A DNA stretch of 64,000 nucleotides from the sequence record PP680568.1; one strand, 5' to 3'. The position numbers and the translations under genes were made by a program. Positions 7,474-64,000 of the stretch are shown here, piece by piece (positions within the stretch are counted from its first letter, which is position 1; the number at the start of each line of letters is the position of its first letter). This DNA is from Enterococcus phage VRE9_2. The notes under the pieces are model-generated. The model saw only the letters and a program-made list of their open reading frames with translations. It searched no databases and was not told the DNA's origin.

Positions 7474-9514
7474 ATGTTAAATGTAATGAAAAAAGATGGT
7501 CATATTGAAATTTTTGACACGAAGAAAATTCAGGAGGCAATTTTAGCTTCTGCAAGGAAAATTCTTTCTAATGAAGAAGAATATGATATGCAGCAAAAAG
7601 CTTTAATTATTGCGAATGAGGTAGCTCGTTTCTTAAATTCAACTGAAGATGAAAATGCAGTTATTATGACATCTAAAATTCATAATGTTGTTCTGGAGAT
7701 TCTATCCAAAGAATGGGAAGTCGTTGGAGCTTCTTATGGAATGTATAGAAACTATAGAAAACAAATGGCTAAAACATTTTTAAAAAGTTATGAGGAATCT
7801 GAAACTGTACTCCACGATGGAGATAAAGAAAATGCTAATAAAGATAGTGATTTGAATAGTACAAAACAAGCTTTAATTGCAAATAATAATATGCGTGGTT
7901 ATATGGAAACATTTGAAATGGATAAAGATTGGATTGAAGCTCATAAACAAGGTTGGATACACATTCATGATTTAGCAGAGCGTTATTTGCGCCAGCAAAA
8001 TTGTTGTTTGTTTAACATGGCAGGTTTATTAGATGGTGGGTTCCAATTAAATGGAACAGTTTATGCAGAGCCTAAACATTTTGATTCTGCTATTAATGTA
8101 GTAGGAGATGTTACTTTGTTTGCATCTGCACAGCAATATGGCGGTTTTACTATTCCTGAAATAGATACTGTTTTAGCTAAATACGCTGAAAAAAGTTATC
8201 AATCAAATTTAAAATTTATTTTAGATAAATTTGGAGATATTACTAATGAAGATATTATGGAAACACTAGAACAAACAGCTTACGACATGACTGTTAGAGA
8301 GCTAGAACAAGGCTTTCAAGGCTTTGAAACAAAATTAAATACAATTAGTAATTCTTTAGGACAAATTCCTTTTGTAACAATTACTTTTGGTTTGGATACA
8401 ACTCAATGGGGAAGAGAAATTTCTAAAGCTATTTTGAATGTACGGATTAAAGGGATTGGAGAAAATAAATCAACAGCGGTATTTCCTAAATTATCTTTTT
8501 TACATAGAAAGGAAATTAATGGAAATCCAGAATCTCCTAATTATGATATTAAACAATTAGGGATTCAATGTTCTCGATTAAGATTATATCCTGATTGGCT
8601 GTCCCTAGATAGTGGAAATCTTGCAGAAGTATATGAAAGATCTAATCAAGTTGTATCTGGGATGGGATGTCGAGCATATTTAAGTCCATTTTGGGACGAG
8701 CAAGGAAATGAAATTTACACTGGACGATCTAATATTGGAGCCGTTACATTGAACCTTCCTAAAATTGGTTTAGAATCAAAAGGGGATTGGAATAAATTTT
8801 TTGATCTAGTAGATAAATATTCTGATATTGTTTTTGCTATTCATGAAGATTATTATACTAAAATTAGTAAAACAAAAGGTTCTTCTAACCCTCTATATTT
8901 CTGTGAAGGTGGAGCTTGGACAAAAGTAGGCTATGATGAAGAAGTTGGGAAGATATATGAAGCTTCAACTGCTTCATTGGGATATATTGGAATTTATGAA
9001 ACATTAAAAGCAATGAATGTTTCAAAAGAAGAATATCTTAAATATGGGACTAAAATTGTTGCATATTTGAAAAAATTAACAGAAAAAGCTACAATTAATT
9101 ATAATCATTTATATGCACTTTATTCAACCCCAGCAGAAAGTTTATGCTATAGATTCCAGAAAATTAATCGTAAATATTATGGAGTAATTGAAGATGTAAC
9201 TGATAGAGAGTACATTACAAATTCTTTCCATGTTCCAGTATGGGAAGATGTTAGCGTTCCTGAAAAAATTGCTTTTGAAGCACCATTCCATAAACTTGCA
9301 ACAGGTGGGCGAATTTCTTATAATGAATTTGTTTATGGAGTAGATAATTCTGTGCTAGAACAAGCAATTAACTTTGCTATGGAAAATGGAATGTATTATG
9401 GAGTTAATGTTGTTGCAGGAACTTGTAATCAATGTGGTTATAGTGGAGATTTCCATGACAATTGTCCTAAATGTGGTACCCATGATATTACAGTAGTAAC
9501 GAGAGTTTGTGGGT
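7474..9514 (+). CDS. nrdD: Anaerobic ribonucleoside-triphosphate reductase NrdD, exon 1 (interrupted at the glycyl-radical RVCG|Y codon)
   Basis: N-terminal ATP-cone; ORF ends ..VVTRVCG followed by intron; last exon-1 base T at 9514 joins AT at 10541 to give Tyr. Confidence 0.8.
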
Positions 9515-10540
9515 TAACTATAAAAAGTTCTCTTTAAAAAACTTAAAGGCTCACGTAAAACAGGATAAATTGCGGGAACATCCTAAAGTTCTTAACTACT
9601 AAGCAAATATAGTGATATATTTGTGGCTGAACTAATCACTCAGGTATAGTAAAAAGGTTAAGAAATTGGACAATCCGCAGCGATACCTCTCATTAGAGAG
9701 AGACGTTCAACGACTATAAACCTGCTCTGGCTTAATTTTAAGCTAAATGTATAGTCTAGTCCGAGATAATATGTAGTATAATAGGAGTTGTTACAGTATA
9801 GATTTTTATGTATACATTCATTATACTAAAGATACAAAAGAAATATTTTATGTAGGTAAGGGTATAAATAACAGAGCTTATTCAAAAGTTAAACGAAATA
9901 AGTTTTGGTGGAATATTGTTAATAAGCATGATTATTGCTTAAAAATTTTATATTCAAATTTATCAGAAGAAAAGGCTTTCCTTTTAGAGAAGGAATTAAT
10001 TAAAAATCTAAAAGCTATTGGATTAGCAAAAGCAAACTTCCATGAAGGAGGTTCAGGAGGAAATACAATGAAATACGCCCCTCTTGGAGAAATCCAAAAG
10101 TGGAAAGAAAGTTTATGCTCCGCTCAACAAAATTTAGATTTAGAAACTAGACAAAGATTAAGTCAAATTCGTAGTCTAAATGTAAGCGGAGATAAAAATC
10201 CTCAATTTAATAAGCCTGGATTTAATACAGGTCGCAAATTTTCTGATGAACATAAAAATAAAATTAGCAATGCTTTAAAACAATATTCTATGACAGAAGA
10301 ACACAAACAAAATATAACAAAATCACACAACAAATATCTATTAAAGGTTATTACAGATAATGGAGAAGAAATGATTTTTAGTTCTCTAAAGGAAGCTTCT
10401 GAAACACTAGGAGTTCCTAAGACTACATTATCTAGTTGTGGACATGGAAATAATGGCAGAAACAAAACCCATTATTCTTCCAAATATAAACTTACTGCAT
10501 ATTATCTAACATAAGTATCCCGAAAGGGACGGTAGATTCG
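9515..10540 (+). mobile_element. Group I intron (approx. 1026 nt) in nrdD carrying a GIY-YIG homing endonuclease ORF
   Basis: Interrupts conserved RVCGY motif; contains P7-like GTTCAACGACTA (9705-9716); ends in G (10540); spliced product restores ..RVCGYLSFDQIHGDSRYNPGKQKEVKERVKHNFK. Confidence 0.7.
9777..10514 (+). CDS. Intron-encoded GIY-YIG homing endonuclease with NUMOD/IENR-like C-terminal DNA-binding region; no canonical start codon upstream of the catalytic motif
   Basis: Open frame from 9777 reads ..FYVYIHYTKDTKEIFYVGKGINNRAYSKVKRNKFWWNIVNKH..EKELIKNL (GIY..YIG..R..H..E..N), in frame with tracked ORF 10068..10514. Confidence 0.65.
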   Translation, partial: YNRSCYSIDFYVYIHYTKDTKEIFYVGKGINNRAYSKVKRNKFWWNIVNKHDYCLKILYSNLSEEKAFLLEKELIKNLKAIGLAKANFHEGGSGGNTMKYAPLGEIQKWKESLCSAQQNLDLETRQRLSQIRSLNVSGDKNPQFNKPGFNTGRKFSDEHKNKISNALKQYSMTEEHKQNITKSHNKYLLKVITDNGEEMIFSSLKEASETLGVPKTTLSSCGHGNNGRNKTHYSSKYKLTAYYLT

Positions 10541-10632
10541 ATTTATCCTTTGATCAGATTCATGGTGACTCACGTTATAATCCTGGTAAACAAAAAGAAG
10601 TTAAAGAAAGAGTTAAACATAATTTCAAATAA
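10541..10632 (+). CDS. nrdD: nrdD exon 2 (C-terminal 30 codons after the glycyl-radical site)
   Basis: Reads (Y)LSFDQIHGDSRYNPGKQKEVKERVKHNFK*, typical NrdD C-terminus. Confidence 0.7.
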
Positions 10633-14056: not shown

Positions 14057-14153
14057 TTTTATAAAATTCAACTATTGGATTCCCTTTAGTTGAATTTTTT
14101 TATTTAAAATTATATAATATATATATAAGTTAATTAAGAAAGGAAGTTGCTTA

Positions 14154-14704
14154 ATGAAAGAAGAAATTTTGAACATCCTATTAGTTGATTTGAAAGAAGA
14201 TTTAGATAGAGAATTAATTGTAGCAGTGGATTTACTTTAGGAGGCGAAAAGTATAGAAAAAATTGTTAAGATTCATGTAGATGGAAGTTACAAGCAAAAA
14301 GTAAACCCTAATGTAGCTGGTTGGGGTTTTTGTATTGAAGCAGAAGAGCAAGAAGTTTTATATACTGCTTCCGGTATCGTAAATAACCCAGTCTCTAGAC
14401 AAATTGATGGAGAAATTCAAGCCGCCAAAGAAGCTATTAATTGGTGTCTTGAAAATGTTATAGATAAAGTAAATACAAAAATTGAAATATATCATGATTA
14501 TGAAGGCTTAGGAAAATGGGCTGATAATCTTTGGAAGACAAATAAACCCTTAACTACAGAATATAAACTTTTTGTTTCTAATGCTCGATTCTCAGGACTT
14601 AAAGTTTATTTTATATGGGAAAAAGGTCATAATAATAATTTCTTTAACGAAATTGCAGATGAATTAGCAACTTCTGCTGTTGAAGATTCTGCCAACATAA
14701 AATA
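14154..14704 (+). CDS. rnh: RNase H-like protein whose reading frame has an in-frame TAG (14238-14240) between a 28-codon leader and the RNase H domain; domain start codon unresolved
   Basis: Downstream frame reads ..KIHVDGSYKQ..AGWGFCIE..EAINWCLEN..IYHDYEGLGKWADNLWK..FIWEKGHNNNFFNEIADELA (RNase H D-E-D-H-D pattern); no ATG between TAG and domain; AGGAGG overlaps the TAG. Confidence 0.55.
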
Positions 14705-14745
14705 ATATTCTATAAGTAGAATAAATAAAAATAGGAGGTTTTAAA

Positions 14746-23217: not shown

Positions 23218-23293
23218 ACTTGAGTGGTCTTAAAAAGGAAAGACGCATGGTTTAATCTTCCATGAGACGTTGGTTCGAGTCCAACCTCAAGAA
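23218..23293 (+). tRNA. tRNA-like, atypical (A-A mismatch at acceptor 1-72; 9-nt anticodon loop TTTAATCTT); isotype undetermined
   Basis: Acceptor ACTTGAG/CTCAAGA, D-arm GTCT/AGAC, canonical T-arm GTTGG-TTCGAGT-CCAAC; first gene after a promoter. Confidence 0.35.
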
Positions 23294-23295
23294 TA

Positions 23296-23550
23296 TCAGG
23301 ATTGGCTATCCTTTCACCTTATAGCTAGAGGTTGATAAATATAAAGTGGAATTAACCACAGTTGGCTGCTCCCTAGGTTAAAGAAGATACCTATTGGGTC
23401 GGGGCATAAGCTAAGTTAACTAATAAACAACTTCTTTTAGTTAGCTTTTCTCACGAGTGATTGTTGAGGTTCAATTCCTTCTTAACCTATGGGCGGGACA
23501 ACACTCTATCGGAGATAAAAATATATAATTTAGTTTAATATTCTCGAGAA
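23296..23550 (+). ncRNA. Structured non-coding segment within the tRNA cluster (inverted repeats AAGCTAAGTTAACTAA...TTAGTTAGCTT; pseudo T-arm GAGGTTCAATTCC)
   Basis: No ORF; multiple hairpins; position analogous to small stable RNAs in phage tRNA clusters. Confidence 0.25.
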
Positions 23551-29259: not shown

Positions 29260-29335
29260 AGTAGAATAGCTTATGTTTGGTTAAAGCACTCACCTTATAA
29301 GTGAGAGAGCGTGGGTTCGAACCCCACTTCTACTA
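29260..29335 (+). tRNA. tRNA-Ile (anticodon TAT), unusual UAU anticodon
   Basis: Perfect acceptor AGTAGAA/TTCTACT, D-arm GCTT/AAGC, anticodon arm CTCAC-CTTATAA-GTGAG, T-arm GTGGG-TTCGAAC-CCCAC. Confidence 0.7.
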
Positions 29336-62765: not shown

Positions 62766-64000
62766 AAGTTATAATTCACTTGTACTTTATTTTATAATAA
62801 ATAAAATATAAAATAAAGGAGTTTTTAAAAATGGAAGAAGATAAAAAATTTACTTATTGGTTTTACAAAATAGAAAATAAAATAAACTCTAAAAAATATA
62901 TTGGTCTAACTAGTAATATAGCTAGAAGACAGTTGAGGCATTTTACAGATTTACTGACACAAAGACATCATAATTCTTTTTTACAAAAAGAATATAATTT
63001 GTTTGGTAAAGAAGCTTTTTCTTTTGAAATTATAGAAGAAAAAAGTTTAAGTGTAAAAGAAGCTTCTCAAAGAGAGATTTTTTGGATTCAGAATTTTGAT
63101 TCATATAATAATGGATATAATCAAAATCCAGGAGGTCTTGGAGGACATACTGGAGCTACAAATGGAGGTTCTCATTTAATAGAATCAGATATATATGCAA
63201 TTAATTCTGCATTAGAATTTTCTTCGAGACCTGGTGCAGTTTTATCTGAAATTTTTAATGTAACAACAACAACAATAAGTAGAATTAAAAAAGGAAGTAG
63301 CCATTTCCAATACACACTAAAATATCAAAAGTTGGATTATGATAAAAGATTTGAAATTTTTAAATCTTTTTGTCAAAGCTCAGACTTTATTTCGAAAAAA
63401 CGAAATAGTACTATTATGCCAACCTCAAAAAGAAAACTGAATGAATTTCAAGTTCATTGTGTTTTACTGAATGAAGAACAAGGAAGAATAGTTCCTTTGA
63501 AGAGATTAGCAAGATATTTTAATGTTAGAGGAAATGTTTTAACTGAAATAATAAACGATAGGTCTTATAGAGATTATCGTGATACCTTCCTTAAAAAAAC
63601 AAGTGAAGAAAAACAAGAGATGGCGTCATTCTTGCGTGAGCAAGAAAAGCAAACTTCTCGAATTGCTGGGACCCCTTTGAGAGCAACAAACCACAATATT
63701 TCTGAAAAGAAAATATGAAGGTTAGAAAATTGTTGCTTATGAGGCAATCAGCAGCCAAGCCCCTAAGTCAAAATGATATGGGGAAGGTTCAACGACTAAG
63801 TATCCTAGTACACTAGGTAGCGGGAAGCTCTTCTTAATAAGAAGATGAAGATATAGTCTGGTCTATATAGAAATATATAGGAAATTGATTAATGGTCAAT
63901 TTCATAACATCACGCGGCAGGCTTTAAAGATCATTTTAGTTATCAAAAACAAATTCAGCTCTTAGTATGGCAATTAATTAAACCTGGTACTGCTATTATT
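62766..64000 (+). mobile_element. Group I intron (5-prime boundary approximate, 3-prime end beyond window) carrying GIY-YIG homing endonuclease; interrupts terL
   Basis: TerL frame terminates prematurely; intervening GIY-YIG ORF; P7-like GGTTCAACGACTA at 63786-63798, same 12-mer as in nrdD intron. Confidence 0.55.
62831..63718 (+). CDS. GIY-YIG homing endonuclease (intron-encoded)
   Basis: ..FTYWFYKIENKINSKKYIGLTSNIARRQLRHF..FSFEIIEE..EIFWIQNF..GYNQN. Confidence 0.75.
   Translation: MEEDKKFTYWFYKIENKINSKKYIGLTSNIARRQLRHFTDLLTQRHHNSFLQKEYNLFGKEAFSFEIIEEKSLSVKEASQREIFWIQNFDSYNNGYNQNPGGLGGHTGATNGGSHLIESDIYAINSALEFSSRPGAVLSEIFNVTTTTISRIKKGSSHFQYTLKYQKLDYDKRFEIFKSFCQSSDFISKKRNSTIMPTSKRKLNEFQVHCVLLNEEQGRIVPLKRLARYFNVRGNVLTEIINDRSYRDYRDTFLKKTSEEKQEMASFLREQEKQTSRIAGTPLRATNHNISEKKI

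Follow-up and report, generated by a model that had tools for sequence, protein, structure and literature searches.

Results

Layout of the locus

The locus examined here lies in Enterococcus phage VRE9_2 (~140 kb, 30% G+C), of which we analysed one stretch of 64,000 nucleotides (record PP680568.1; hereafter the window), and consists of a short leader, an in-frame amber codon and an RNase H gene with no canonical start codon; the region studied is ~94% identical to that of phages EF1, EF5, H1, VRE9_3 and VRE9_4. An ATG at 14154 opens an open reading frame (ORF) of 28 codons closed by a TAG, which is overlapped by a perfect Shine-Dalgarno (SD) motif, AGGAGG, in the arrangement T-AGGAGG. The frame of this leader continues past the TAG for 154 codons to a TAA at 14703-14705, with no in-frame ATG, GTG or TTG in its entire length, and is the most extreme start-less case among the 87 window ORFs of at least 90 codons; with the codon usage of this genome, 150 codons free of these three triplets have a probability of ~0.004. 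The initial annotation, which had reported a TAG in frame between a 28-codon leader and a start-less RNase H and overlapping AGGAGG, was thus confirmed from the sequence. Its positions for the TAG and the leader start were right, and three others needed adjustment: the candidate ATA is at 14253-14255 (not 14254), the candidate ATT occupies 14262-14264, and the stop codon extends to 14705 rather than 14704.

We compared the junction across 13 independent assemblies, comprising the window, five GenBank phages, one IMG/VR contig, two Logan contigs and four metagenome or assembly contigs. Leader, TAG, AGGAGG and ATA were found in all 13. Since the TAG is kept throughout this set, which includes isolates as well as metagenomes, it is no sequencing error, and the correction removing it that the initial annotation had envisaged was not seen; that a sequencing or assembly error created the TAG or deleted an ATG is refuted by the identical junctions and has a negligible probability.

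The start-less frame encodes a putative type 1 RNase H under selection

The product of the frame matched Pfam PF00075 at 39.7 bits (gathering cut-off 25.8; 6.7e-10), covering profile positions 3-140 of 141, and matched the PDB entries 2kq2 (3e-9) and 3h08 (2.5e-5) as well as E. coli RNase HI. The catalytic residues D10, E54, D82, H126 and D136 are all in place, with D10, E54, H126 and D136 invariant in an alignment of eight sequences, E. coli RNase HI among them, and D82 (YHDY motif) invariant in alignment A3 and present in all phage orthologs. The product is thus a putative type 1 RNase H enzyme. Among six phages, the ratio of non-synonymous to synonymous polymorphism (pN/pS) is 0.085 in the RNase H frame versus 1.4 and 2.3 in the two off-frames, and in the 13-assembly alignment third codon positions account for 47 of the 60 variable sites outside codons 2-5. 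Judging from these sequence comparisons, the gene is intact, functional and under purifying selection, and the recent inactivation considered in the initial annotation was rejected. A terminator-like hairpin with a T-rich tail was also noticed inside the coding sequence (AAACCCTAAT...GTTGGGGTTT TTGTATT, over the NPNVAGWGF motif); its stem is weaker in most relatives (GGGGCTT), and the element is probably a side effect of what the sequence encodes.

AUA as the probable initiation codon

The AGGAGG that overlaps the TAG lies 8 nucleotides (nt) before ATA 14253 and is predicted to form a duplex of -12.2 kcal/mol with the 3' end of 16S rRNA, which is in the top 14% of gene starts in a ranking that credits each gene with its best SD, and an SD of this strength or stronger occurs at only 0.27% of random positions. 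Moreover, ATA, AGGAGG and their 8-nt spacing are invariant across the 13 assemblies. A single site varies in the 15-nt segment that begins with the TAG and stops just short of ATA, whereas the four codons after ATA (codons 2-5) contain four variable sites, of which three fall on first or second positions, and form the most variable part of the gene. At the protein level this appears, among cluster members, as an invariant EAKS followed by I-[E/K]-[K/N]-[I/T]-[V/I]-K, a pattern that agrees better with a ribosome-binding site and a free N-terminus behind it than with a linker between domains.

The position of ATA 14253 also agrees with the starts of homologous proteins, falling within 0-3 residues of the initiator Met in P0004, in five phage orthologs (Twortvirinae and Lactococcus phage KSY1) and in E. 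coli RNase HI; the starts of lineages L030 and L031 (below) agree with it in the same way. Chlorobium RNase HI (PDB 3h08; MEKTITIYTDG) aligns residue for residue, from residue 1, with an ATA-initiated M-EKIVKIHVDG. The non-canonical initiation at ATA that the initial annotation had listed as one option thus gains support from the spacing, the invariance and the ortholog start position, and we consider it probable that RNase H is translated from the near-cognate AUA at 14253-14255.

Two ATT codons downstream, at 14262-14264 and 14271-14273, are near-cognate as well and lie before the catalytic Asp, and the second is conserved in all clade sequences displayed. It is also the start chosen by the curated NCBI PGAP pipeline for WP_362876604.1 (P0006), a 142-residue protein beginning MHVDGSY at an ATT that has no SD. 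Initiation at either ATT nevertheless has a very low probability. Their distances from AGGAGG are 17 and 26 nt, and in the usual window their SD energies reach just -4.0 and -2.4 kcal/mol. The ATT at 14262, the other non-canonical candidate of the initial annotation, has this SD out of usable reach and is ACT in five relatives (L003, L011, L026, L027 and L029), and was therefore dropped. A start at 14271 would leave two residues before the catalytic Asp, compared with 5-9 in orthologs, and would clip strand beta-1 of the RNase HI fold. In Listeria, moreover, start efficiency follows the order ATG > ATA > ATT (PMC13068326).

Sister lineages start canonically and lack the leader

In a syntenic lineage of 68% identity (L015), which shares the gene order nrdD, nrdG, metallophosphatase, 79-residue helix-turn-helix (HTH) protein and RNase H, the RNase H gene starts with AAAGGTGG followed after 9 nt by ATG (MKNIKIHVDGSY), at most one codon from the position of the ATA in the window, and we found no leader ORF in the 81-nt intergenic region before it. 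Two lineages of 51% identity likewise have no leader ORF: RNase H starts with ATG in L030 (MGLINIHTDGSY) and with TTG, 8 nt after AGGGGG, in L031 (KIYVDGSY). In the Twortvirinae and KSY1 orthologs and in E. coli RNase HI, a Met lies 6-9 residues before the catalytic Asp, and the phage orthologs in this set, like the 68% and 51% lineages, have no N-terminal extension. Because the orthologs start canonically and without a leader, the comparison shows that leader and ATA are a derived state of the VRE9_2 clade. The canonical starts at the equivalent position also settle a check put forward in the initial annotation, and count against readthrough of the TAG.

Upstream of RNase H in Mammaliicoccus and Staphylococcus Twortvirinae (L006, L007 and L009) is a conserved ORF of 62-64 codons; its end and the RNase H ATG overlap by 8-13 nt, the two genes forming a typical translationally coupled pair. 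Homology between this ORF and the leader could not be shown, the only resemblance being one noticed by eye (ELIVA/ELLIVA), with no detectable similarity. A separate case is P0005, from a Logan contig of 1777 nt, where an RNase H of 45% identity forms the C-terminal half of a called 306-residue protein with an internal MMQLELDIYTDGGY at the usual RNase H start position; either the fusion to an upstream domain is genuine or the gene has been called too long.

A homing endonuclease gene with the same start design

We scanned the window for a strong SD followed by ATA, ATT, ATC or CTG and a long ORF without a nearby canonical start. Three sites were returned: RNase H, ATA 9798 and a minus-strand site at 23309, which is antisense to a tRNA-like gene and was set aside. 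ATA 9798 lies 10 nt after AGGAG and directly before the DFYVYIHY...YVGKG motif of a GIY-YIG/NUMOD homing endonuclease, in a frame without a canonical start over 90 codons; a 9-codon in-frame mini-ORF (ATG 9747, MYSLVRDNM) ending in TAG precedes it. A relative of 77% identity (L024, L025) keeps SD and ATA with the spacer and the next codon changed, and relative to it the start-less 90 codons have a pN/pS of 0.24 at a synonymous divergence (pS) of 0.45. Distant homologs have a Met within 1-4 residues of the position of ATA 9798. Apparently, then, the endonuclease too is initiated at an ATA, as judged from these alignments. An 8-mer common to both ATA sites (AGTATAGA) is not conserved in relatives and was dismissed as coincidence.

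The endonuclease gene lies within a group I intron of nrdD, whose limits were placed by comparison with the uninterrupted nrdD of VRE9_3 (exon 1 to ~9512, exon 2 from ~10546) and which was matched by Rfam RF00028 at 9497-9765 (45.9 bits, below the gathering score of 50; E = 4.7e-10). No close match to the endonuclease gene was found in any phage record. Close to the window's end lies another group I intron, which matches the full length of the same Rfam model (95.1 bits).

A third candidate ATA gene, a NUMOD4/HNH endonuclease of VRE9_3 (L014:14435-15268, genome 114435-115268), was rejected. It is more simply read as a frameshifted gene, since 4 nt past the ATA at 114435 there is an ordinary TAA-ATG junction in another frame; the cause is probably a frameshift in the gene or a sequencing indel. 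This gene is annotated from a canonical start 92 codons in, with loss of the NUMOD4 domain.

Readthrough, suppression and loss of expression

Readthrough or suppression of the amber codon, one of the options raised in the initial annotation, would extend translation from ATG 14154 into a 183-residue RNase H with a 32-residue N-terminal extension, as its sole or as a minor second product. Leader and RNase H do share a frame in which no canonical start follows, and the leader has a good SD (-10.9 kcal/mol), is conserved in the 13 assemblies and varies at five sites of which four are synonymous. The genome is also rich in tRNA genes: the window has 17 by ARAGORN, all between 23.7 and 32.6 kb, plus one tRNA-like gene by Rfam, and VRE9_3 has 15 by each tool. 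Yet neither method found one with a CUA anticodon, whether in the window or across the complete genome of VRE9_3 (137.7 kb), which answers the suppressor tRNA search (anticodon CTA) suggested with the initial annotation. The tRNA-like gene (41.8 bits in Rfam, missed by ARAGORN) has a good cloverleaf, an A1xA72 mismatch and a 9-nt anticodon loop, UUUAAUCUU, that contains neither CUA nor a complement to the junction; it is conserved in VRE9_3 (L013:48719-48787) with two differences, both in the D-loop. We considered it as an amber decoder and found no link to the amber codon. TAG ends six of the 55 long ORFs and is therefore a normal stop here, and genome-wide TAG recoding was rejected in view of the dense coding that the standard code already gives. 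A G after a stop codon, as at this TAG, is a comparatively efficient termination context in E. coli. No stimulatory RNA structure or riboswitch was found, the segment 14125-14300 showing no significant fold (z = -0.09) and the leader and junction having no Rfam match at the gathering threshold in a whole-window scan. A small intron excising the TAG was likewise rejected, since the Rfam group I introns of the window lie elsewhere and none lies at the junction. To this are added the lack of an extension in the sister lineages and in all distant orthologs, and the distribution of variation, with the would-be linker invariant and the residues just past ATA variable. Programmed readthrough or suppression is thus unsupported, and we regard it as improbable, though ahead of the ATT starts.

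The "fused" proteins in databases give readthrough no further weight. In P0001 (a cluster of 70 sequences) and P0002 the leader is joined to RNase H through a Gln, and the contigs of both carry the TAG; for this reason, and since P0002 also reads a second TAG near the C-terminus, they are attributed to a gene caller that translates TAG as Gln on short contigs and were rejected as real products. The TAG before the GIY-YIG endonuclease is translated as Gln in the same way in P0020, a 60-member cluster. That RNase H is silenced or decaying, its start lost by an ATG-to-ATA change with no useful expression left, would account for the missing canonical start and might be read from the public annotation, where the gene is unannotated in four of five GenBank relatives and present in the fifth as a truncated piece only. 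Such decay is, however, difficult to reconcile with the pN/pS of the frame, with 150 codons free of frameshifts and internal stops in a genome of 30% G+C and with the retention of the ORF in 13 assemblies from several countries and sample types. SD and ATA are, moreover, invariant whereas neighbouring codons vary, and the endonuclease gene keeps the SD-ATA design at the synonymous divergence given above. Silencing is the least probable of these explanations after sequencing error, and initiation at AUA 14253 is the reading that we retain. We also asked whether the phage supplies an initiator tRNA for AUA. Its tRNA-Ile with anticodon UAU reads AUA directly, which fits the heavy AUA use of a genome of 30% G+C, and is an ordinary elongator, with a paired A1-U72 and without GGG/CCC in the anticodon stem.

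The leader and its upstream signals

Within the 13 assemblies, four of the five variable sites of the leader are synonymous third positions (binomial p = 0.045, on few sites), and a single amino acid polymorphism (A/S) occurs among cluster members. Third-position variation affects 4 of 28 codons of the leader versus 47 of 141 of RNase H (p = 0.07). With an SD of its own, the leader is probably a translated, clade-specific upstream ORF (uORF), as its substitution pattern suggests. No paralog from which it could have been duplicated was found in the window or in VRE9_3, at either the DNA or the peptide level.

Further upstream, a terminator-like 11-bp perfect inverted repeat followed by a T-run is conserved in all relatives, and in L031 a comparable hairpin with T-run precedes RNase H. 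The repeat is likely the intrinsic terminator of the upstream HTH gene and sets RNase H off as a transcription unit of its own; our terminator scan missed it because the stem holds only two G-C pairs. It overlaps a promoter-like element that matches 10 of 12 consensus positions, with both hexamers invariant in the nine assemblies displayed. This promoter call is weak alone, because such elements are equally frequent in shuffled AT-rich sequence (7 found versus 7.3 expected).

The leader ends with its TAG on the SD of RNase H, 12 nt ahead of ATA, a geometry of termination and reinitiation; no hairpin that would sequester this SD was found. The co-occurrence of leader and weak codon, both missing in the sister lineages, is suggestive only of a coupling between them.

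RNase H in public annotation

RNase H is correctly annotated in none of the five relatives L001-L005 (GenBank PP680569, MF001358, PP680570, OP534061 and MF001361). Three have a gap of ~700 bp at the locus, VRE9_3 has junk ORFs and VRE9_4 has a 113-residue fragment without the catalytic Asp. Apart from the NCBI choice of an ATT, other gene callers start the protein at V21 (GTG) or fuse it to the leader via TAG read as Gln.

Table 1. Features at and around the RNase H locus and other elements of the window discussed in the text.
Feature	Position	Strand	Remarks
Terminator-like 11-bp perfect inverted repeat, AAATTCAACTA / TAGTTGAATTT, with T-run	14064-14102	+	Read from sequence; conserved in all relatives
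Promoter-like TTGAAT - 17 nt - TATAAT	14090-14118	+	10 of 12 consensus positions
Leader SD, AAAGGAAG	14139-14146	+	7 nt before ATG; -10.9 kcal/mol, top third of gene starts
Leader ORF, 28 codons and TAG, MKEEILNILLVDLKEDLDRELIVAVDLL	14154-14240	+	Found in all 13 clade assemblies; lacking in the 68% and 51% lineages
Amber codon	14238-14240	+	Leader stop within the ribosome-binding site of RNase H, whose frame it shares; invariant in 13 assemblies
RNase H SD, AGGAGG	14239-14244	+	8 nt before ATA; invariant in 13 assemblies; -12.2 kcal/mol
ATA, proposed initiation codon of RNase H	14253-14255	+	Invariant in 13 assemblies; alignment with ortholog Met
RNase H coding sequence, 150 codons and TAA	14253-14705	+	PF00075, PDB matches, pN/pS, alignments
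Terminator-like hairpin inside RNase H	14303-14329	+	Probably a by-product of the coding sequence
nrdD group I intron	~9513-10545	+	Contains the endonuclease gene
GIY-YIG/NUMOD homing endonuclease	9798-10514	+	SD 9783-9787; in-frame TAG 9774-9776; inside nrdD group I intron
tRNA-like gene	23218-23293	+	Rfam 41.8 bits, missed by ARAGORN; good cloverleaf, 9-nt loop, A1xA72 mismatch
tRNA-Ile (UAU)	29260-29335	+	Ordinary elongator
Second group I intron	63583-63880	+	RF00028, 95.1 bits

Discussion

In the mechanism that we propose, AGGAGG would position the 30S subunit on the AUA 8 nt downstream, the initiator tRNA would pair with two of its three bases, and a 150-residue RNase H would be made at a low level, which would suit a potentially harmful nuclease. 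The amber codon would not be decoded, being the stop of a clade-specific uORF with its own SD and ATG that by chance forms part of T-AGGAGG. The shared frame of leader and RNase H would then follow from the SD-to-start spacing and have a 1-in-3 chance. Ribosomes finishing the leader at the UAG may in addition reinitiate at the AUA, raising or conditioning the output of the weak start, a coupling step that we put forward tentatively and rate somewhat below even. A broader and rather unlikely extension is a clade-wide device in which a uORF ending in UAG on or just before the SD hands ribosomes to AUA, so that synthesis of both RNase H and the GIY-YIG endonuclease would depend on upstream translation or on initiation-factor status. 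In a rarer variant of this device, a small fraction of ribosomes may also read through the UAG and yield an N-terminally extended isoform.

Several observations weigh against initiation at AUA 14253. AGGAGG alone is not proof of a start, because only 21 of its 35 copies in the window precede a canonical start and the other 14 have no start following them. The leader, in frame, conserved and with coding-like substitutions, fits a fusion protein equally well as an independent uORF, and the NCBI pipeline picked a different non-canonical start, ATT 14271, for a gene of identical type. With the third candidate fallen, the pattern of ATA starts rests on two genes, and the use of AUA by Enterococcus ribosomes is extrapolated by analogy from other Bacilli.

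If the AUA start is true, this gene would offer a clear, naturally occurring case of AUA initiation in a phage that infects a Gram-positive pathogen. For annotation, the point is that all public relatives lack, or misrender, a phage enzyme that is conserved and under selection. The case is not one of recoding; it is that of a conserved phage gene mis-annotated time and again, and one of two apparent ATA-start nuclease genes in one genome. Because the ancestral leaderless state with ATG or TTG survives in sister lineages, the switch to a weak start and a uORF is open to comparison and to simple reporters. For method, the lesson is that an in-frame stop beside a start-less domain in a tRNA-rich phage should not be called recoding before other start codons and the orthologs have been examined. 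The mechanism proposed, near-cognate AUA initiation downstream of a strong SD, is already known, the twist of uORF coupling being unproven.

Weak starts have precedents in phage T4, where the start of gp26* is AUU and an AUG-to-AUA mutant of rIIB reportedly shows temperature-sensitive initiation. Our search of the literature on AUA/ATA start codons in phage or Enterococcus found nothing on this gene. The closest parallels come from Bacilli: in Staphylococcus aureus, the AUA starts of infC, ccpN and citZ, all with extended SDs, were mapped by retapamulin ribosome profiling, AUA reporters gave ~10-30% of AUG activity, cvfC1 starts at AUU, and the AUA start of ccpN is conserved in Bacillus subtilis (PMC13009471). 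As in these genes, a near-cognate codon in RNase H would replace AUG behind a strong, well-spaced SD that is conserved together with the odd codon, in a phage whose host belongs to the same bacterial class, and reduced, tunable initiation is likely. RNase H differs from them in being a phage gene whose start is deduced from comparative sequence, whereas theirs were mapped by ribosome profiling; none of them is described as having a uORF that ends inside the SD, and the sister lineages of RNase H have kept ATG or TTG. In E. coli, AUA, AUC, AUU and CUG each give 1-2% of AUG activity (Hecht et al.; 10.1101/063800), and with this series and the AUU genes infC and pcnB the locus would share an inefficient initiation codon that limits expression. 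The codon (AUA) and the organism are different, and no autoregulatory loop through IF3 is implied for RNase H.

Non-AUG codons, like weak or sequestered ribosome-binding sites, are a recognised means of down-regulating intron-encoded ORFs such as homing endonucleases (PMC3073962), and the GIY-YIG gene at ATA 9798 fits this class directly. The same logic of keeping a nuclease scarce may extend to RNase H, which unlike those endonucleases is a free-standing replication/repair enzyme with a strong SD and no sequestering hairpin found. The arrangement also resembles Q-beta A1 readthrough and TAG-recoded gut phages, in having an in-frame stop between a short 5' ORF and a conserved domain in a tRNA-rich genome, but differs from them in that no suppressor tRNA, TAG reassignment, stimulatory structure or ortholog extension was found. 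Closer in geometry are systems of termination-reinitiation coupling. Here too the upstream stop lies on the SD, 12 nt before the next start, and RNase H of Staphylococcus and Mammaliicoccus phages also follows a small overlapping ORF; what would set the VRE9_2 clade apart from them is a restart codon that is AUA, a uORF of just 28 codons and a dependence between the two that is, at the sequence level, putative.

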